From Escherichia phage vB_EcoM_ECO78: a DNA stretch of 64,000 bases. How positions within the stretch are numbered: position 1 is the first letter of the stretch; each line of letters opens with the position of its first letter. Position numbers and translations under genes: made by a program. Shown piece by piece: positions 24,324 to 50,900 of this stretch. The notes below the pieces were generated by a model. It searched no databases, was not told where the DNA came from, and saw only the letters and a list, made by a program, of their open reading frames with translations. The stretch lies in the sequence record PP526941.1; one strand, written 5' to 3'.

Positions 24324-24511
24324 TATTCTTCTACATGCTGTTTACGACCTTTCTTATCAATAAAGGTATATTCAACGAATGTTCCAATGTAGTCTTTATC
24401 TACATCATGTAGACTATTAATTGGGCATTTAGTACGGCAAATGCGTTCCCATTGACGAATAATTTCTGCTTTGTTTTTAGGATCAAACGGATGCGGGTAA
24501 TGTATTTTCAT
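24299..24511 (-). CDS. Hypothetical protein (70 aa)
   Basis: ORF. Confidence 0.5.
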   Translation of the reverse strand: MKIHYPHPFDPKNKAEIIRQWERICRTKCPINSLHDVDKDYIGTFVEYTFIDKKGRKQHVEEYCLKVTWL

Positions 24512-24962
24512 AATCCACCACTATTAAATCAATATCAGGAGTAAACATGTCGATTAATTTAGAAACCTTATCCCAATCACCGCCAGCAATACCACAACCT
24601 ATGCGTGGAATGTAAATTACTGGTTTAAACAAAAGGGTTTCTGCCTGTAGATTTAATTCTATCATGCAGTTTACTAAAGCACCATAATCAAGATTAGGAC
24701 CTGGTTCGTATTGCGTATACAAGTTATAACATATGCCAAAACCATTAGGTTTATGTTTAAAAACAATAGACATATCACCGAGTTTTTCACGCGAACCATA
24801 TTCAGTTGTGGTCTTATCTATTTCTAAAATTTTGGGATAGGCTCTTGCTAATTGACCAGCTACACCACTACCCATTGTATGAAAACAATTGCACCCGTGC
24901 GCAATAATATTACCTTCAAGAAAGAGGGCGACAATATCGCCCTTGATATATTTTACAATCAT
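24483..24962 (-). CDS. Macro-domain protein (ADP-ribose binding/hydrolase-like), 159 aa
   Basis: Motifs GDIV ... NIIAHGCNCFHTMGSGVAGQLARAYP and IPRIGCGIAGGDW resemble macrodomain signature; ATGA coupling. Confidence 0.7.
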   Translation of the reverse strand: MIVKYIKGDIVALFLEGNIIAHGCNCFHTMGSGVAGQLARAYPKILEIDKTTTEYGSREKLGDMSIVFKHKPNGFGICYNLYTQYEPGPNLDYGALVNCMIELNLQAETLLFKPVIYIPRIGCGIAGGDWDKVSKLIDMFTPDIDLIVVDYENTLPASV

Positions 24963-25306
24963 CTAGTACTCAATCCTCGATTATAAGAATCTACCAAACG
25001 GTCAACCATTGAATGACAAGCGGCTTTATCTTTCTCCTCCGCAACTGAACATTCTAACGTATTCCACTTTTTAGCATATCGTTTTAATAATGTATCGTTT
25101 TTGTATCTGCTTGATTTATCTCTTTCTCCATCTTTATATGCATATATTAATTTCTGTGCAAATTCAGCTTGGCATGCTTTATTTTTCCCACAATAATCTG
25201 CCGCAGTGCGGTTTGCATATTCTCTAATTTCAGTATATGATGTATCTGCTGACGCAGAAGCAGAAAATGAAATTAATCCTATACATAAAACCAAAATTTT
25301 AGTCAT
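24959..25306 (-). CDS. Secreted small protein (115 aa); vs position
   Basis: Signal peptide MTKILVLCIGLISFSASASA; Cys-containing mature part. Confidence 0.55.
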   Translation of the reverse strand: MTKILVLCIGLISFSASASADTSYTEIREYANRTAADYCGKNKACQAEFAQKLIYAYKDGERDKSSRYKNDTLLKRYAKKWNTLECSVAEEKDKAACHSMVDRLVDSYNRGLSTR

Positions 25307-25844
25307 TTACTATTTCCAAAAGTTTATTATTTTTAAGGTAATTAGCCTTTTCTAGGACTTCAGAAGCATATTTAGAACCTGCTTTAACATTCCATCCCGA
25401 ATTATAAGAGGATATTGCTTTTCTTATATCGCCCTTATGTATATTTAACCAATAAGAAAGTTCAATGTACGCCCAGGAAGCTGAATTGGATCGTTTATTC
25501 AACATTCTTTTTATTTCAGCATCGGTCATATTATAACCAAGTTCCTTAACTCTTGCTCGCATAGTAGGCAAATAATTTTGGAACATTCCGTAGGCGTGGT
25601 GCTTTGGTTTAGATTTTAAATTAACTCCGCCAGAGCTTTCTTGCCATAAAATAGCAGCCATTATATGACCCAATCCGCTCTTGTGGATATTTTTATGTGT
25701 TTTATATTTTCCATCCTTAGAAAATTGTTCCCCGAATTGATACGCGTAACGCATGTTATCGAGTTGGACATTACTGAAAGTATGCTCGGAGCTATGCGCC
25801 ATCATTGAAATGGCCAATAGACCAGCGAGTAGTGCTTTTCTCAT
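25299..25844 (-). CDS. Secreted lytic-transglycosylase-like protein (SLT domain)
   Basis: Signal peptide; SLT-like motifs AILWQESSG and YGMFQ. Confidence 0.65.
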   Translation of the reverse strand: MRKALLAGLLAISMMAHSSEHTFSNVQLDNMRYAYQFGEQFSKDGKYKTHKNIHKSGLGHIMAAILWQESSGGVNLKSKPKHHAYGMFQNYLPTMRARVKELGYNMTDAEIKRMLNKRSNSASWAYIELSYWLNIHKGDIRKAISSYNSGWNVKAGSKYASEVLEKANYLKNNKLLEIVND

Positions 25845-25851
25845 GCTTACC

Positions 25852-26313
25852 TCATTGAGTTTTAATTACTGCTTTAGAAGCCTTTCCTGGTAAACGACGA
25901 CTGTTGATAATTGCCATCCTACATTGAAGTGACGGGTCTTTGAACTTCTCGTTAGGTTTACAAACTGTAAATCCGAGCCAAAGATTTCCATCTGTGATTT
26001 CTAAACGTCCAGGGCGATATTCAACCCCATCAATAAAATCCTCGTCAATGTCAGGACGCGGAGGCATACTCAGGAATTCATTAACTTCTAAAACATGGTC
26101 TTTTATTTTGTGGAATAATTCAAAAACGTATGTCTCATCAATCTCCCGTTGAATTGCACGATCAAGAAGATGCTGAGAATATTTTAGATGAAACGATGAG
26201 ACTCCTGCTGCTTTTGATGCCTCACGAATCTCATTGTTAATTTGACGAAACTCCGACTCAAAGTGACGACGAAGCTTATTTCGACGGATAAAAACTTCTG
26301 TATTGATAGTCAT
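25852..26313 (-). CDS. regB: Endoribonuclease RegB
   Basis: 153 aa, same length and position as T4 RegB; sequence recalled as RegB-like. Confidence 0.8.
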   Translation of the reverse strand: MTINTEVFIRRNKLRRHFESEFRQINNEIREASKAAGVSSFHLKYSQHLLDRAIQREIDETYVFELFHKIKDHVLEVNEFLSMPPRPDIDEDFIDGVEYRPGRLEITDGNLWLGFTVCKPNEKFKDPSLQCRMAIINSRRLPGKASKAVIKTQ

Positions 26314-26340
26314 GTTATTCTCCTCTTAACTGATAGAAAA

Positions 26341-26370
26341 ATTATACCACAGTCAAGAGGAAAAGTAAAC
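26341..26370 (-). promoter_or_regulatory. Early promoter upstream of regB
   Basis: Minus strand GTTTAC - 18 nt - TATAAT; SD GAGGAG before regB ATG. Confidence 0.65.
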
Positions 26371-26372
26371 AA

Positions 26373-26651
26373 TTATTCTTTAAATCTAATCAATTTATTC
26401 ATAGACTTTGAAACTTCTGCACGAACCTCATGTAGATTTTTGAGCTGTTCAAGACGTTGCTCATAGTAAGCAATTTCATCTTCTTCAAGACAGTCCTGTG
26501 AATCTTCTTTAAGATAACGTGCATAGTCCTGAAAAGCGTTACGAACTACTTCCTGGAAATCATCAAGACTTTGAATTTTCTTAGGAGCAGCAGATACACG
26601 ACGAGGGGCAGTATAATACTCATAACCAAACCCTGCGCTTAATTGAGCCAT
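26373..26651 (-). CDS. Hypothetical protein (about 92 aa)
   Basis: Internal ATG start ([12 protein letters not shown]...) abutting upstream stop. Confidence 0.5.
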
Positions 26652-26917
26652 TAGTATTTTTCCTCTGGTTGGAACACTGCACGACAAGCCCACATACTGG
26701 CTTCTTTGAGTTTCGTTTTAGCAATAGTTAACTGATCGAGGCTTTCGGCGTAATTCTTCGCGAGTTCATCATCTTCACAGCTATCAAATGCTTCCCAAAA
26801 TTCATCGTATAAAGCATCAAAGATAAGTCCTAAACGAACTTCAGCGTCTTTGATAGCATTCACTTTACCGATTTTTTCGTCGGTATGTGGCTTATAACCT
26901 TTAATATCTTCAATCAT
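26651..26917 (-). CDS. Candidate Acb2-like cyclic-oligonucleotide sponge (vs.4 position), 88 aa
   Basis: Fourth ORF beyond the vs-like gene in a vs.1 to vs.8-like series; SD GAGGAAG before ATG ([11 protein letters not shown]...); assignment by synteny and recall only. Confidence 0.45.
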
Positions 26918-27131
26918 ATTTGACTTCCTCACCAGTACCCAAGTCATATTCAACTAAACGAATAGGTTCATGAATGCCATATCCCTGAACAGAAATTTCT
27001 GTAGTAGGATAAATTCCATTAATATCACCCATGTTCCATGCTTCGTTAAATTGCTGTTCGCCTGAATTACTAAACCATTCGGCGAAAGCATTTAGCACAT
27101 CTTCAGAACCTTCAATAATTATCTTTGCCAT
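26910..27131 (-). CDS. Hypothetical acidic protein (73 aa)
   Basis: ORF. Confidence 0.5.
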   Translation of the reverse strand: MAKIIIEGSEDVLNAFAEWFSNSGEQQFNEAWNMGDINGIYPTTEISVQGYGIHEPIRLVEYDLGTGEEVKYD

Positions 27132-27493
27132 TACAAACTCTCGGTAAAGGTACGAGCGATAACGTCGCGCTGCTGTTCCGGAGTCAGAGAGTTAAAGCGA
27201 ACTGCATAACCGGATACACGGATGGTCAGCTGCGGATATTTTTCCGGATGCTTAACTGCATCTTCCAGAGTTTCGCGACGCAGAACGTTAACGTTCAGGT
27301 GTTGACCACCTTCAATTTTAACTGTAGGTTGTGGCTCAATTTCAATTTCACGGGCATGCAAACCGTAGAAAATTTCTGGGTCTACAAAAGAGTCCTCTTT
27401 AAAGGTTTTAGAGACAATAATTCGTGCTTGAATACCATCTTCAAAATAAATAGTACCTTTATGTGTGCCTTCAAGAATTTGATATGCTTTCAT
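27131..27493 (-). CDS. GrcA/YfiD-like autonomous glycyl-radical cofactor protein
   Basis: C-terminal 60 aa [60 protein letters not shown] identical to recalled E. coli GrcA; host-like codons (CTG/CGT/CCG). Confidence 0.85.
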
Positions 27494-27500
27494 ATAAACC

Positions 27501-27830
27501 TCAATTAGAAAATAAATTTATCCAAGATTGTTCTTTAATTAAAAATGGCTCAGAATCATATGCCATTAAACTCTGGGTAATTAATCCTTTAAAAGGTCCA
27601 TCAATAAACTCCATTGTAAAATATGGAATTTTATTCATTAGCCGTGCATTAGGAGCAGTGCACAAAACTCTGCATCCTTTGAATACGCCTTTTTGTAATT
27701 TGTATTGCTTGGGATAAAATTCGCTCAAAATATTATTATTCGCTAAAATTTCAAAATGATTCACCAATTTATTTTTAATAGTTTTTGGCGAAAAATAAAG
27801 ATATTCGAAAAGCTGAGTGTCTGTCATCAT
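27501..27830 (-). CDS. Hypothetical protein (109 aa)
   Basis: ATG overlapping upstream stop (ATGA). Confidence 0.5.
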
Positions 27831-28366
27831 TGCATTCCGATTACGAAAAACTGTGGACGAGTAATACCACCAATACAACAGTTAATATTACAGCAGTGGT
27901 GTACAGTGTCAATATGGACACTATAAATCTTATCCATATCAGGAGATTTGACAGGCTCATCAATTATATACAAAATTCGCGAAAGCGATAAACCTCTGAA
28001 CTTGCTTCCTTTATTACCTATAAAACTGCGCACAGAATCAGTAAATAAACGAAAACGTATATCATCATTAGAATAACGCGAAAATTCCTTTTTAATGTTA
28101 TTTGCAGAAATTTTAGCGTAAGCTGAAGTATTAGAAAGAACAATAACTGTTCCGCCATCATACAGCCAATTAGCAGCAAAGTTAGTCACAGCAATTGATT
28201 TACCGGATTGACGTCCACCATCTAGTCGAAGTGTGCAATACTGTTTAAGTAAGTCTTCAAATGGCGGGATATATTCGTTTTTACAAATTTCTTCTACTCT
28301 AGCATCAGAATGGTGTGTAAAAGCATTCATCAGGGATAGATAAGGACCAGTTAAAAATGTTCTCAT
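27827..28366 (-). CDS. P-loop protein (179 aa), unknown function
   Basis: Walker A LDGGRQSGKS; C-terminal Cys/His cluster HHCCNINCC. Confidence 0.6.
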   Translation of the reverse strand: MRTFLTGPYLSLMNAFTHHSDARVEEICKNEYIPPFEDLLKQYCTLRLDGGRQSGKSIAVTNFAANWLYDGGTVIVLSNTSAYAKISANNIKKEFSRYSNDDIRFRLFTDSVRSFIGNKGSKFRGLSLSRILYIIDEPVKSPDMDKIYSVHIDTVHHCCNINCCIGGITRPQFFVIGMQ

Positions 28367-28518
28367 TTCTTCTCTCTAAGTTTGGGCCATTCCGTGGCAC
28401 ATGAATTGTCCATTTCTGTATTTACCCATTACCGCGCTTGGGCTCGACCTTATTACAGGTTGGCGGGAATCCCTCATAGAATCATGAGGTCCAGCTTGTT
28501 CCCATATTTCTTATTTGC

Positions 28519-28992
28519 TTATTTGAATGATTTGACGTACTGAATAGAGCCTTTACTATTCACGAAAGCGATTTTACCATTTTTATTATACATGGTAGCA
28601 GTACGCTGATAGCCATAAGTTTGTTTACCAGATTGATAACCAACTAATGCGAAATTATCTTCACCCATTTTATTCTGTTTAGCGCGAATACGTTCATGAC
28701 CGTGTGCCATAAGAACCTTAGCATCACCAGTTGAAATTGATCTACGAGTTTTTTCATCTTCAACTGTATTAACAAAGTCGTCAAATGAATCAAATTTAGC
28801 ATGGGATTTATTATACAGTTTTCCATCTACTGCATAATTATATCCCTGTACATCCATCTCAACTTCTGTACCATCATCCAATACAGCAGTGATTTTTTGA
28901 CCTTTTTTAAATTTCAAAAGATCAGTAAAAGATTCAGCAATAATTTGAGAATTAATAGCTGCTTCAGTGATAAATTCTTGATATGTTTTCAT
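28519..28992 (-). CDS. Internal-protein-like (capsid targeting sequence) protein, 157 aa
   Basis: N-terminal CTS MKTYQEFITEA typical of T4 internal proteins; SD AAGGAAA. Confidence 0.65.
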   Translation of the reverse strand: MKTYQEFITEAAINSQIIAESFTDLLKFKKGQKITAVLDDGTEVEMDVQGYNYAVDGKLYNKSHAKFDSFDDFVNTVEDEKTRRSISTGDAKVLMAHGHERIRAKQNKMGEDNFALVGYQSGKQTYGYQRTATMYNKNGKIAFVNSKGSIQYVKSFK

Positions 28993-29001
28993 ATGTTTCC
29001 T

Positions 29002-29418
29002 TTAAATGTAAATATTTTTGCCGTAATACTTGTACCAGTGTGGCTTCATTAAAATTTTTTCATCGAGTCGTTGTTGACTCAATTTAATAGCTGATTTGCA
29101 TGGATTATAATCATTTTTCCATTCTGCTGGAATATCGCTGATGTCAGGAACTTCAGTATCTTTTATACTAAACCCACGTTTTAAGCATTCCGTTATAATG
29201 TCTGATTGACGCTTTCGCAAAAATTCTAACTTATCGTAAAAGAACGTAACATGACCAGAGCCTAAAATAAACTCGGAAGATATTTTAAAATCTTTAACCC
29301 GCTTACCATTTGCCACATGTTTACGAACTATACCAAAAACACGCGGCAATTCACGATACTCAGCCATAAGATGTTGGTCGGTCAGTTCAGAAACAAGTGT
29401 TAAATTGATACGAGTCAT
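29002..29418 (-). CDS. denV: Endonuclease V (pyrimidine dimer DNA glycosylase)
   Basis: 138 aa from ATG with SD GGAGGA ([12 protein letters not shown]...); matches T4 DenV by recall with a few substitutions. Confidence 0.9.
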
Positions 29419-29445
29419 AATTTCCTCCAAGTAGTTGATGAATGT

Positions 29446-29475
29446 ATAGTATCAAAGTCCTTGGAGGAAGTAAAC
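29446..29475 (-). promoter_or_regulatory. Early promoter upstream of denV
   Basis: Minus strand GTTTAC - 18 nt - TACTAT with conserved downstream block. Confidence 0.65.
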
Positions 29476-29476
29476 A

Positions 29477-30279
<803 letters not shown>

Positions 30280-36025: not shown

Positions 36026-36101
36026 TGGTCGAGGCAGTAGGGATCGAACCTACGACCCAGGACTTAGAAGGTCCTTGCTCTTCCTTCTGAGCTATGCCCC
36101 G
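36026..36101 (-). tRNA. tRNA-Arg (anticodon UCU)
   Basis: 76 nt; cloverleaf by eye: acceptor CGGGGCA/TGCCTCG, anticodon loop CTTCTAA, T-loop GGTTCGATCC, encoded CCA. Confidence 0.8.
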
Positions 36102-36105
36102 TAAT

Positions 36106-36181
36106 TGGGGTGACCGATGGGAGTCGAACCCATGACTACGAGAATCACAATCTCGAGTTCTACCAACTAAACTACGGCCAC
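36106..36181 (-). tRNA. tRNA-His (anticodon GUG)
   Basis: 76 nt; acceptor GTGGCCG/CGGTCAC, anticodon loop TTGTGAT, T-loop GGTTCGACTCC, encoded CCA. Confidence 0.75.
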
Positions 36182-36294
36182 ATTAATACCTACTCCAACA
36201 ATCAAGATGTCTTCACACGAAATTAAGAGAAGAGTGATCAGTTCAACCCTATAATCGCGTCAAGTAGATATTAATGTGACAGTTGTCACAAATT

Positions 36295-36369
36295 TGGCGG
36301 ACGTGATAGGATTCGAACCTATAACCAATCGCTTAACAGGCGATCGCTCTGCCATTGAGCTACACATCC
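36295..36369 (-). tRNA. tRNA-Asn (anticodon GUU)
   Basis: 75 nt; acceptor GGATGTG/CACGTCC, anticodon loop CTGTTAA, T-loop GGTTCGAATCC, encoded CCA. Confidence 0.8.
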
Positions 36370-36373
36370 AAAT

Positions 36374-36460
36374 TGGTGGGGAGTGATGGAGTCGAACCAC
36401 CCGAGTCGCAATGACAATGGATTTACAGTCCACACCGCTACCTCTACGGGATAACTCCCC
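36374..36460 (-). tRNA. tRNA-Tyr (anticodon GUA), long variable arm
   Basis: 87 nt; acceptor GGGGAGT/ACTCCCC, anticodon loop CTGTAAA, T-loop GGTTCGACTCC, encoded CCA. Confidence 0.75.
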
Positions 36461-36473
36461 TTAATTCTTAATT

Positions 36474-36548
36474 TGGTGGCCCTGGGTGGAATTGAACCAC
36501 CATCTGGCGATTATGAGTCGCTTGCTTGAACCTTCCAGCTACAGGGCC
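36474..36548 (-). tRNA. tRNA with anticodon CAU (Ile2-like or Met)
   Basis: 75 nt; anticodon stem-loop GCGACTCATAATCGC resembles tRNA-Ile2 (lysidine type); T-loop GGTTCAATTCC; encoded CCA. Confidence 0.7.
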
Positions 36549-36556
36549 AAATTTTC

Positions 36557-37039
36557 TTATTTTATGTAATATTTATTTAAAAACTTTCTAGCTTGAGTAT
36601 GGCTAACATTTATAGCGTTTGCATAATTTTTAATAAAACCTCGTTCATCCATATTAAAATTTTCTAATATTTTTAATCGTCTAGTTATCTCATCTTGACT
36701 TAAGGTACTTGCATTATTTTTAGAAATTTTTTCTAAGGACTGTGCCGAGTGTTTTCTACCATTAAAATTAAAATTTTTAGATTTTGGAGGAAATCTAGCA
36801 TTTAATCTCGCATCTTTTGTATTTTGATTATTAGTTGCGCAATATATGTTATTTAATGAATATGGTCCTTTATCGCCGAAACGGCACATGCAGTATTCAT
36901 GACCCTTTCTTCCACGCTTATCATAATTTCCCGTCGATTTCCACCAATGCAGCCATTCATCAAAAGTTAAATTCCATTCAATGTTTCTACGTATAGCAGA
37001 ATTCCGCTGAGAAATATATTTTGCATAATCTTCTTTCAT
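36557..37039 (-). CDS. Putative HNH-like homing endonuclease / DNA-binding protein with NUMOD3 motif
   Basis: 160 aa; motif GRKHSAQSLEKISKNNAS (NUMOD3-like), C-terminal HTH-like tail, N-terminal His/Cys/Asn cluster; inserted between tRNA-Ser and the CAU tRNA. Confidence 0.55.
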   Translation of the reverse strand: MKEDYAKYISQRNSAIRRNIEWNLTFDEWLHWWKSTGNYDKRGRKGHEYCMCRFGDKGPYSLNNIYCATNNQNTKDARLNARFPPKSKNFNFNGRKHSAQSLEKISKNNASTLSQDEITRRLKILENFNMDERGFIKNYANAINVSHTQARKFLNKYYIK

Positions 37040-37086
37040 CACAAATTTCTCTACTTATTCAATACACTGAGCTAAATCAGCAAAAC

Positions 37087-37176
37087 TGGCGGAGGCGATA
37101 GGATTTGAACCTATGAGTCGCCGGAGCGACTGCCGGTTTTCAAGACCGGTGCATTAAACCACTCTGCCACGCCTCC
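37087..37176 (-). tRNA. tRNA-Ser (anticodon UGA), long variable arm
   Basis: 90 nt; acceptor GGAGGCG/CGCCTCC, anticodon loop CTTGAAA, T-loop GGTTCAAATCC, encoded CCA. Confidence 0.8.
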
Positions 37177-37178
37177 AG

Positions 37179-37252
37179 TCTCCATACAAGGATTTGAACC
37201 TTGGACCTCCTGATCCCAAATCAGGCGCTCTACCAAACTGAGCTACACGGAG
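37179..37252 (-). tRNA. tRNA-Pro (anticodon UGG)
   Basis: 74 nt; D-arm GCTCAGTTTGGTAGAGC, anticodon loop TTTGGGA, T-loop GGTTCAAATCC; CCA not encoded. Confidence 0.8.
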
Positions 37253-37262
37253 TAAATTAAAT

Positions 37263-37336
<74 letters not shown>

Positions 37337-37341
37337 AAATT

Positions 37342-37428
37342 TGGTGCGAGAAGTGGGACTCGAACCCACAAGGAAATCATTCCGCAGCATTTTAAGTGCT
37401 GTGCCTTTACCAATTTGACCATTCTCGC
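37342..37428 (-). tRNA. tRNA-Leu (anticodon UAA), long variable arm
   Basis: 87 nt; acceptor GCGAGAA/TTCTCGC, anticodon loop CTTAAAA, T-loop GGTTCGAGTCC, encoded CCA. Confidence 0.8.
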
Positions 37429-37429
37429 G

Positions 37430-37502
37430 CTGGGAATAAAGGACTCGAACCTTTGCATCCTGGAATCAAAATCCAGTGCCTTACCAACTTGGCTAATTCC
37501 CA
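37430..37502 (-). tRNA. tRNA-Gln (anticodon UUG)
   Basis: 73 nt; acceptor TGGGAAT/ATTCCCA, anticodon loop TTTTGAT, T-loop GGTTCGAGTCC; CCA not encoded. Confidence 0.8.
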
Positions 37503-39432: not shown

Positions 39433-40129
<697 letters not shown>

Positions 40130-47981: not shown

Positions 47982-50900
47982 CAGTAAAAGCACCTTCAGT
48001 CACTAGTCTCAGAATTTCCAAGTTATCCGCAAATCAGGTGCAAGTACGCTGGGATGACGTTGGTGCTAATTTCTACTATTTTGTAGAAATCGCTGAGACA
48101 AAAACAGACTCGGGGGAAAATCTCCCGAGCGATCAATATCGTTGGATTAATTTAGGATATACAGCAAACAATAGTTTCTTTTTTGATGATGCTGATCCAC
48201 TAACATCATACATCATTAGAGTAGCTACAGCTGCACAAGATTTTGAGCAATCTGATTGGGTTTATACAGAAGAGTTTGAAACTTTTGCTACGAATGCTTA
48301 CACATTTCAAAACATGATTGAAATGCAATTAGCCAATAAATTCATTCAGGAAAAATTTACTCTTAATAATTCTGATTATGTTAATTTTAATAATGATACT
48401 ATAATGGCTGCATTGATGAATGAATCATTTCAATTCAGCCCATCATATGTTGATGTTTCATCAATCAGTAATTTTATTATTGGTGAAAATGAGTATCATG
48501 AAATACAAGGTTCTATTCAACAAGTATGTAAGGATATTAACCGAGTTTATTTGATGGAATCAGAAGGGATTCTATATCTTTTTGAGCGTTATCAACCTGT
48601 AGTTAAAGTATCCAATGATAAAGGACAAACTTGGAAAGCTGTAAAGCTCTTCAATGACCGTGTAGGATATCCTTTATCTAAGACAGTATATTACCAATCT
48701 GCGAACACAACATACGTTCTAGGATACGACAAGATTTTCTACGGCCGCAAATCTACTGATGTTAGATGGTCAGCCGATGATGTCAGATTTAGTTCTCAGG
48801 ATATAACATTTGCTAAACTTGGCGACCAATTACATTTAGGATTTGATGTAGAAATTTTTGCCACTTACGCGACTTTACCAGCGAATGTATATCGCATTGC
48901 AGAAGCTATTACTTGCACCGATGATTACATTTACGTTGTCGCCAGAGACAAAGTTAGATACATAAAAACGAGTAATGCACCTATAGATTCTGATCCATTA
49001 TCTCCAACATATTCGGAAAGACTTTTTGAACCTGATACAATGACTATAACCGGAAATCCTAAAGCAGTATGCTATAAAATGGATTCTATCGGTGATAAAG
49101 TTTTTGCTCTTATTATTGGTGAAGTTGAAACATTAAATGCTAATCCTAGAACATCAAAAATAATTGATTCTGCTGATAAAGGAATATATGTTTTAAATCA
49201 TGACGAAAAGACGTGGAAAAGAGTTTTTGGTAATACCGAAGAAGAAAGAAGACGTATTCAACCCGGATATGCGAATATGTCAACTGACGGTAAATTAGTT
49301 TCTCTGTCTTCGAGTAATTTTAAATTTTTAAGCGATAATGTTGTTAATGACCCTGAAACTGCAGCAAAATATCAGTTAATTGGCGCTGTTAAATATGAAT
49401 TTCCTCGTGAATGGTTAGCTGATAAGCATTATCATATGATGGCATTTATAGCGGATGAAACATCTGATTGGGAGACTTTTACTCCTCAACCAATGAAATA
49501 CTACGCAGAACCATTCTTTAACTGGTCTAAAAAATCTAACACACGTTGTTGGATAAACAACTCTGATAGAGCTGTAGTAGTTTATGCTGATTTAAAATAC
49601 ACCAAAGTTATAGAAAATATTCCGGAAACATCACCAGATAGATTAGTTCATGAATACTGGGATGATGGTGATTGCACTATAGTAATGCCAAATGTCAAAT
49701 TCACTGGATTTAAAAAATACGCATCAGGAATGCTTTTCTACAAAGCCTCCGGTGAAATAATTTCTTACTATGATTTTAACTATCGTGTGAGAGATACAGT
49801 AGAAATTATTTGGAAACCTACTGAAGTATTTTTAAAAGCATTTTTACAAAACCAAGAGCATGAGACTCCTTGGTCACCAGAAGAAGAGCGTGGACTAGCT
49901 GACCCTGATTTAAGACCATTAATTGGCACAATGATGCCTGATTCTTATTTGTTACAGGATTCAAATTTTGAGGCATTTTGCGAAGCATATATTCAATATC
50001 TTTCTGATGGATACGGAACTCAATATAATAATTTACGGAATCTTATTCGTAATCAGTATCCACGAGAAGAGCATGCATGGGAATATTTGTGGTCAGAGAT
50101 ATATAAAAGAAACATTTATTTAAATGCTGATAAACGTGATGCTGTTGCGAGATTCTTTGAATCACGTAGCTATGATTTTTATTCTACTAAAGGAATTGAA
50201 GCATCATACAAGTTTCTTTTTAAAGTTCTTTATAATGAAGAAGTTGAAATTGAAATTGAATCTGGGGCTGGTACTGAATATGATATAATCGTTCAATCTG
50301 ATTCTTTGACTGAAGATTTAGTAGGACAAACGATTTATACGGCAACAGGAAGATGTAATGTTACTTATATAGAAAGAAGCTATTCTAATGGTAAATTGCA
50401 ATGGACCGTAACTATTCATAATCTTTTAGGACGATTAATTGCTGGTCAAGAAGTTAAAGCAGAAAGACTCCCTAGTTTTGAAGGCGAAATTATTCGTGGG
50501 GTTAAAGGAAAGGATTTGCTTCAAAACAATATAGACTATATTAATAGAAGTAGATCATACTATGTAATGAAAATTAAATCCAATTTACCTTCTTCTCGTT
50601 GGAAATCTGACGTTATTCGTTTTGTTCATCCAGTAGGATTTGGATTTATAGCAATTACACTTTTAACAATGTTTATTAATGTTGGTTTAACTCTTAAACA
50701 TACAGAGACTATAATTAATAAATACAAAAACTATAAATGGGATTCTGGATTGCCTACTGAATATGCTGATAGAGTAGCTAAATTAACTCCAACCGGCGAA
50801 ATTGAGCATGACTCAGTAACAGGCGAAGCAATTTATGAGCCTGGCCCAATGGCTGGTGTAAAATATCCTCTTCCTGATGACTATAATGCTGAAAATAATA

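Follow-up and report, generated by a model that had tools for sequence, protein, structure and literature searches.

The window analysed here, a stretch of 64,000 nucleotides from Escherichia phage vB_EcoM_ECO78 (PP526941.1), belongs to a T4-like coliphage, a member of Tequatrovirus. When 21 T4 proteins were placed on it by tblastn, they mapped in T4 order, and all on the minus strand, as rI, rI.1, tk, a tk.2-like gene, tk.3, tk.4, vs, vs.1, regB, vs.3, vs.4, vs.5 to vs.8, denV, e and nudE (Table 1), with identities to T4 of 99% for vs.6, 99% for vs.7, 96% for vs.8, 78% for denV, 94% for e and 97% for nudE. The same gene order is found in the annotations of T4, ime09 and T2. The 88-codon open reading frame considered in this report lies between vs.3 and vs.5, on the same strand as its neighbors, within the early run that leads from tk through vs, regB and the vs.N genes to denV. 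The original prediction had arrived at vs.4 by counting the ORFs as a series matching T4 vs.1 to vs.8, with regB as the second and vs.4 as the fourth. Such counting from vs is valid, since the T4 proteins map in order and the T4, ime09 and T2 annotations agree.

Table 1. Features in and around vs.4 of the window, with the evidence for each.
Feature	Coordinates	Strand	Evidence or remarks
tk.4, macro-domain protein	24483..24962	-	Pfam Macro, 34 bits; 58% to T4 Tk.4
vs	24962..25306	-	99% to T4 (tblastn)
vs.1	25302..25844	-	100% to T4 (tblastn)
regB	25855..26313	-	100% to T4 (tblastn)
vs.3, downstream of vs.4	26373..26651 (tblastn 26376..26651)	-	98% to T4 vs.3; PHROG 2037
vs.4 / acb2 CDS, anti-CBASS cyclic-dinucleotide sponge (predicted)	26651..26917	-	88 codons + TAA; 7UQ2, PF24729, PHROG 717; tblastn of T4 vs.4 at 26654..26917, 94% to T4
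Codons 74-82 of vs.4 (S74, A77, R79, F82), C-terminal pocket and hexamer interface (predicted)	26672..26698	-	39/39 homologues; nucleotide-identical to T4
Codons 44-52 of vs.4, hairpin tip	26762..26788	-	Codon comparison; 4/5 amino-acid changes (L44F, N46S, C50D, F52L); hypervariable segment
Codon 8 of vs.4 (Tyr8), cGAMP base stacking (predicted)	26894..26896	-	39/39 homologues; role from T4 Vs.4 (PMC10097602)
vs.5, upstream of vs.4	26910..27131	-	73 aa; PHROG 1986 over full length
vs.4 ribosome-binding region	26918..26935	-	GAGGAAG, read directly from the sequence; within the 3' end of vs.5
vs.8	27827..28366	-	179 aa; PHROG 1488 over full length
Ip4-type protein	28519..28992	-	Pfam DUF7412, 318 bits; between vs.8 and denV
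Internal head protein	29477..29773	-	93-98 aa; PHROG 3499; between denV and e
Ten tRNA genes	36026..37502	-	Arg, His, Asn, Tyr, Met, then Ser, Pro, Gly, Leu, Gln
Gene 57B (acb1), cyclic-oligonucleotide phosphodiesterase, second anti-CBASS gene	39436..39891	-	100% to T4 57B over 152 aa

The reading frame opens with an ATG at 26917-26915 and closes with a TAA at 26653-26651. Its coordinates and its length of 88 amino acids had been predicted exactly, with the strand left unstated, and the good Shine-Dalgarno sequence that had been noted for it is the GAGGAAG that ends 7 nt before the start codon (5'-CTGGTGAGGAAGTCAAAT-ATG). The stop codon of vs.4 shares one base with the start codon of vs.3 (TAATG), and the stop of vs.5 overlaps the start of vs.4 by 8 nt. 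Tight gene packing with overlaps is typical of the T4 early gene run. T4 vs.4 is alike in its 88 amino acids, its slot between vs.3 and vs.5 and its one-base overlap with vs.3, but T4 vs.5 encodes only 58 amino acids and is separated from vs.4 by a 36-nt gap, whereas vs.5 of the window is longer and overlaps the vs.4 start; the ime09 arrangement of vs.5 and vs.4 is that of the window. A chance ORF was ruled out by the codon changes that separate the frame from T4 vs.4 (13 synonymous against 5 non-synonymous) and by the occurrence of homologues in 1231 phage records, and the same excess of synonymous changes fits purifying selection on vs.4. An overlapping gene on the plus strand was likewise ruled out, as ORFs of 30 or more amino acids are absent from that strand beneath vs.4.

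A promoter scan of 25800..29600 returned 16 sites against 14.2 +/- 3.6 expected, which is the chance level, and a terminator scan of the same segment returned 2 sites against 2.4 expected; neither a dedicated promoter nor a dedicated terminator for vs.4 was found there. The sole noteworthy minus-strand site, TTTACT-17-TATAAT at 26369..26341, lies upstream of regB and downstream of vs.3 and is irrelevant to vs.4. The overlaps of stops and starts from vs.8 through vs.3 point to translation of vs.4 from a polycistronic mRNA whose start lies further upstream; by analogy with T4 this transcript would be early or middle.

At the upstream end of this gene run, vs.8 is shorter than the annotated T4 form of 219 amino acids, which includes about 36 upstream codons. 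In the window the corresponding codons (region to 28486) end in an in-frame TAG (28376-28378), one of the two tandem copies of a 9-nt sequence seen in T4 (CTTATAGAG) having been lost, and in ime09 the upstream part of vs.8 is out of frame. The N-terminal extension of Vs.8 may thus exist in T4 only, or may have arisen as an artefact of annotation. The roughly 110 nt upstream of the vs.8 start (28376..28490) are almost identical to T4, are GC-rich by the standard of this phage (49% against about 35%), and are seemingly non-coding here; a structured RNA was ruled out for this segment, which has no Rfam match and folds no better than shuffled sequences (z -0.45).

The 3.7-kb stretch around vs.4 has matches in 862 phage records, the best of which are Escherichia phages slur03, slur08 and slur14 at 98.3%, while for a 24-kb stretch the best single record reaches only 96.5% over 93% of the length. 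Such a patchy match to single records is the usual T-even mosaic. Several parts of the window differ from T4. The tk.4 gene is only 58% identical to T4 Tk.4 while its flanking genes reach 94-99%, and the adjacent tk.1/tk.2 slot is taken by a single 68-aa ORF with 54% identity to Tk.2; this region is a locally swapped module, and the macro domain of the tk.4 product could be relevant to ADP-ribose-based defence. The internal-protein cassette also departs from T4 and has the arrangement of ime09, with an Ip4-type protein and, where T4 has ipII and ipIII, one internal head protein. The tRNA genes (the only matches in an Rfam scan of the whole window) number ten, compared with eight in T4, and form a set nearer to that of T2 than to that of T4, as it includes Asn, Tyr and Met but lacks Ile and Thr; the two tRNA blocks are separated by a gap of about 540 nt, and segB does not adjoin tRNA-Arg, unlike in T4.

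The identity of the 88-aa product, which had been guessed from synteny and size as an Acb2-like sponge, is now borne out by direct comparison. Its sequence matches T4 Vs.4, whose hexamer with bound cGAMP is PDB 7UQ2, at 83 of 88 positions (94%) without gaps in both BLASTP and phmmer (E 4.4e-53), so that a lack of similarity to the Acb2 family, the outcome that would have spoken against the guess, did not occur. The match to the Pfam family PF24729 (Acb2_Tad1_hairpin) scored 71 bits, where the gathering score is 27, and covered all profile positions (1-58 of 58); PHROG 717, the family by which Vs.4 homologues were previously collected (Jenson et al. 2023, PMC10097602), was matched at E 5.6e-32. 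Similarity to PaMx33 Acb2 (8H2J, 8IXZ) was full-length but weak (E about 0.09), and NCBIfam yielded no model for Acb2 or Acb1.

The predicted fold agrees with the sequence. An AlphaFold2 monomer model built from the single sequence, with a mean pLDDT of 87.2, shows two long antiparallel helices (residues 11-45 and 50-81) that form a hairpin with its turn at 46-49, as expected of the Acb2 protomer of about 90 residues. The top matches of this model in a Foldseek search of the PDB were three chains of 7UQ2 (best E 8e-10, about 1e-9; TM 0.73-0.74), followed by PaMx33 Acb2 (8H2X and 8H2J, TM 0.71-0.72), below which only generic helical bundles with E above 0.3 appeared. The rmsd to 7UQ2 is high (6.5-6.9 A) because the terminal tails, which contact other protomers in the crystal, were modelled with low confidence (pLDDT 49 at residues 1-10 and 68 at 81-88).

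The residues that carry out ligand binding in T4 Vs.4 are known in detail (Jenson et al. 2023, PMC10097602). In that protein, Y8 and F82 stack on the bases of cGAMP, while H11, K23, R79 and also Y8 make hydrogen bonds or salt bridges to the ligand; S74N interferes with ligand contacts, T12 caps a helix, and L29, F33, A66, A73 and A77 hold the hexamer together. All of these residues (Y8, H11, K23, S74, R79 and F82 of the pocket; L29, F33, A66, A73 and A77 of the interface; and T12) are present in the window protein; since T4 Vs.4, to which it is 94% identical, is known to be a hexamer, we infer a hexamer here as well. We recovered 46 IMG/VR loci, which together with T4 and ime09 gave an alignment of 39 distinct full-length homologues with 50-99% identity to the window protein. 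Y8, H11, K23, A66, S74, A77, R79 and F82 are invariant in all 39; T12, L29 and A73 occur in at least 95%, and F33 in 77%. Across this family, residues 1-33 and 66-88 are almost frozen, and residues 34-65 are hypervariable with indels.

Taken together, the ORF, its homology, its synteny and the conservation of its functional residues make it almost certain that 26651..26917 is the T4 vs.4 (acb2) orthologue and encodes a cyclic-dinucleotide sponge of the T4 type. At least 59 phage genomes in public databases encode the exact protein, for the most part under the label "hypothetical protein". A protein 100% identical to it is encoded at 48867..49130 of PV654520.1, a 142-kb record named 'Pseudomonas phage vB_PSGBLB0006' whose listed host is P. 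aeruginosa. For a gene of Tequatrovirus such a host would not be expected, and the record may have been given the wrong host or contain DNA of a coliphage as a contaminant.

Only five substitutions, all conservative or peripheral (E13D, L44F, N46S, C50D and F52L), separate the window protein from T4 Vs.4, and none of them falls on a listed functional residue. E13D lies at the start of helix 1, where aspartate is the commonest residue in the family. The other four are clustered at the hairpin tip in a run of nine codons, for which P is about 0.009 if replacements are placed uniformly, and three of them require two nucleotide changes. Such a cluster could be read as a shift in ligand range or potency away from that of T4, with tip changes altering the packing of the helices and, through it, the trinucleotide pocket, the stability of the hexamer or the affinity. 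Acb2 homologues do differ in ligand range (PMC10312549, PMC12393519), and a proposal exists that how large the cA3 pocket is depends on helix angles as well as on the contact residues (PMC10312549). One of the mutations found in the T4 screen, L60F, lay outside the pocket (PMC10097602), which leaves some room for effects of non-pocket residues. We nevertheless regard a shifted ligand range in this otherwise true orthologue as very unlikely: the ligand-contact, cA3-crowding and hexamer-interface residues are all unchanged, and the patch sits at the inter-helix turn, in the hypervariable, indel-rich middle segment, a pattern that fits relaxed constraint. Synonymous changes crowd there too (26750..26799 holds 11 nucleotide differences from T4), as would fit local divergence through recombination. 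The tip cluster is thus more simply read as relaxed constraint or as a small recombinant patch. When the alleles of the window, T4 and ime09 are compared, their replacements gather at this same place, and it is conceivable, though improbable, that the hairpin tip (about residues 43-52) of T4-type Acb2 is under diversifying selection, either for escape from a host factor that recognises Acb2 or for tuned hexamer dynamics.

The nucleotide differences from T4 are also unevenly spread along the gene as a whole. All 21 of them lie in codons 6-59 (26741..26900), and codons 60-88 (26651..26740) show no DNA difference from T4. So abrupt a step in divergence inside vs.4 looks like a mosaic recombination boundary.

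The ligand range of T4 Acb2 provides the best guide to that of the window protein. T4 Vs.4 binds cGAMP with a Kd of about 30-84 nM, does not cleave it, and has been shown to inhibit a CBASS effector (PMC10097602, PMC10312549). On a host with a cGAMP-CapV type II CBASS and inactive Cap2, T4 plates about 50-fold less well once vs.4 is deleted. Its ligands are cyclic dinucleotides, with a Kd for cGAMP of about 84 nM in one study, and neither cA3 nor cAAG is bound (Cao et al., PMC10312549). It has been proposed that Y37, A57, L60, D61 and T64, together with the helix angles, shrink the trinucleotide pocket of the T4 protein; the D61R mutant gave no rescue (PMC10312549). Because these five cA3-excluding residues are unchanged in the window protein, we infer a dinucleotide-only sponge that would bind neither cA3 nor cAAG, and its ligand affinities would likewise be of the T4 type. 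The window protein does not belong to the dual-pocket subtype represented by PaMx33 and JBD67, which is marked by R67, T74 and a kinked helix: the position equivalent to the arginine is occupied by D61, as in T4. The Thoeris signal 3'cADPR is the ligand of certain other Acb2 homologues, which bind it through extra terminal beta-strands (PMC12393519); since the termini of the window protein are of the T4 type, nothing suggests such an activity here.

Binding of cyclic dinucleotides may also carry a cost. T4 Acb2 binds 2',3'-c-di-AMP with a Kd of about 62 nM and thereby triggers Panoptes OptSE, and mutants that escape Panoptes lose Acb2 function, as in F82C (PMC12657218). With Y8 and F82 intact, binding of 2',3'-c-di-AMP would be expected of the window protein, and for this reason the phage should be Panoptes-sensitive. 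It is against this background that one could ask whether vs.4 in the window is an inactive or decaying copy, like those of T2 or PaMx41, kept by linkage alone. Panoptes selects for loss of Acb2, and such loss is known in nature: the annotated T2 Vs.4 (L051 15591..15851) starts with MKILRD and is without the IKGY motif that contains Y8, in agreement with a published remark that T2 has a mutation likely to disrupt its dinucleotide pocket (PMC12657218), and three T4-like IMG/VR contigs (L046, L048 and L049) carry frameshifted or truncated acb2 copies. These natural defective alleles fit selection for Acb2 loss by guard systems such as Panoptes. The window gene, however, has an intact N-terminus and a full-length frame with a Shine-Dalgarno sequence and an ATG, its pocket residues are all in place, its changes are mostly synonymous, and the identical protein recurs across those 59 or more phage genomes. 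Decay is accordingly an exceedingly improbable account of this copy, and a functional sponge of the T4 type remains the preferred reading.

Comparison with other sponges and with Acb1 places the window protein more precisely. T4 Vs.4 (PDB 7UQ2, PMC10097602) shares with it every cGAMP-contact, hexamer-interface and cA3-excluding residue. PaMx33 Acb2 (8H2J, 8H2X, 8IXZ; Huiting et al. 2023; PMC10312549) belongs to the same Pfam family, has the same hairpin fold and is a hexameric sponge, and its Y11 and K26 (the base-stacking tyrosine and the pocket lysine) correspond to Y8 and K23 of the window protein; however, the two proteins are only about 24-26% identical, and PaMx33 Acb2 has a second pocket for cA3 and cAAG, of which the T4 type and, by extension, probably the window protein lack a working version (PMC10312549). 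Tad1 and the Thoeris sponges of the Acb2_43 type share the PF24729 hairpin domain and are oligomeric sponges as well, but they bind gcADPR or 3'cADPR by means of different terminal elements (extra beta-strands in Acb2_43, PMC12393519), whereas the window protein has a T4-type cyclic-dinucleotide pocket.

Acb1, the product of gene 57B, is directed at the same CBASS signals but has an unrelated fold, and as an enzyme it degrades them instead of sequestering them. The window encodes a 57B protein identical to that of T4; its match to PF23474 scores 202.7 bits, where 27 would suffice, and its gene lies about 12.5 kb from vs.4. The original prediction that this phage, if vs.4 were Acb2, would carry both Acb1 and Acb2 therefore holds, and the co-occurrence of the two has already been described for T4 (PMC10312549). 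Loss of acb1 left Panoptes restriction of T4 unchanged (PMC12657218).

By extension from the 94%-identical T4 protein, the mechanism by which Vs.4 would counter CBASS in this phage can be outlined. First, the 88-aa product would fold into its two-helix hairpin, and six copies would interlock as a hexamer in which pairs of protomers make up three pockets. Second, one molecule of 3',3'-cGAMP, or of another cyclic dinucleotide related to it, would be clamped in each pocket; Y8 and F82 would stack on its bases, while its phosphate-ribose ring would be held by H11, K23, S74 and R79. Sequestration of the signal made by the host CD-NTase would then keep CBASS effectors such as CapV inactive and allow the phage cycle to be completed in vivo, with Acb1 degrading such signals alongside the Acb2 sponge. 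Finally, the same pockets should bind 2',3'-c-di-AMP and so leave the phage open to attack by Panoptes, a guard system.

In summary, vs.4 of the window is the re-identification, in a close relative of T4, of a published and structurally solved anti-defence gene, and is as such already known. The Acb2 family, its structure, its mechanism and its counter-defence in the form of Panoptes have all been published, and the discovery value of the finding is accordingly small. Its value lies in annotation, as most phage records still list this exact protein, along with hundreds of its close relatives, as a "hypothetical protein". Correct naming predicts resistance to cyclic-dinucleotide CBASS together with sensitivity to Panoptes-type systems, which would be useful in the choice of T4-like phages for therapy.
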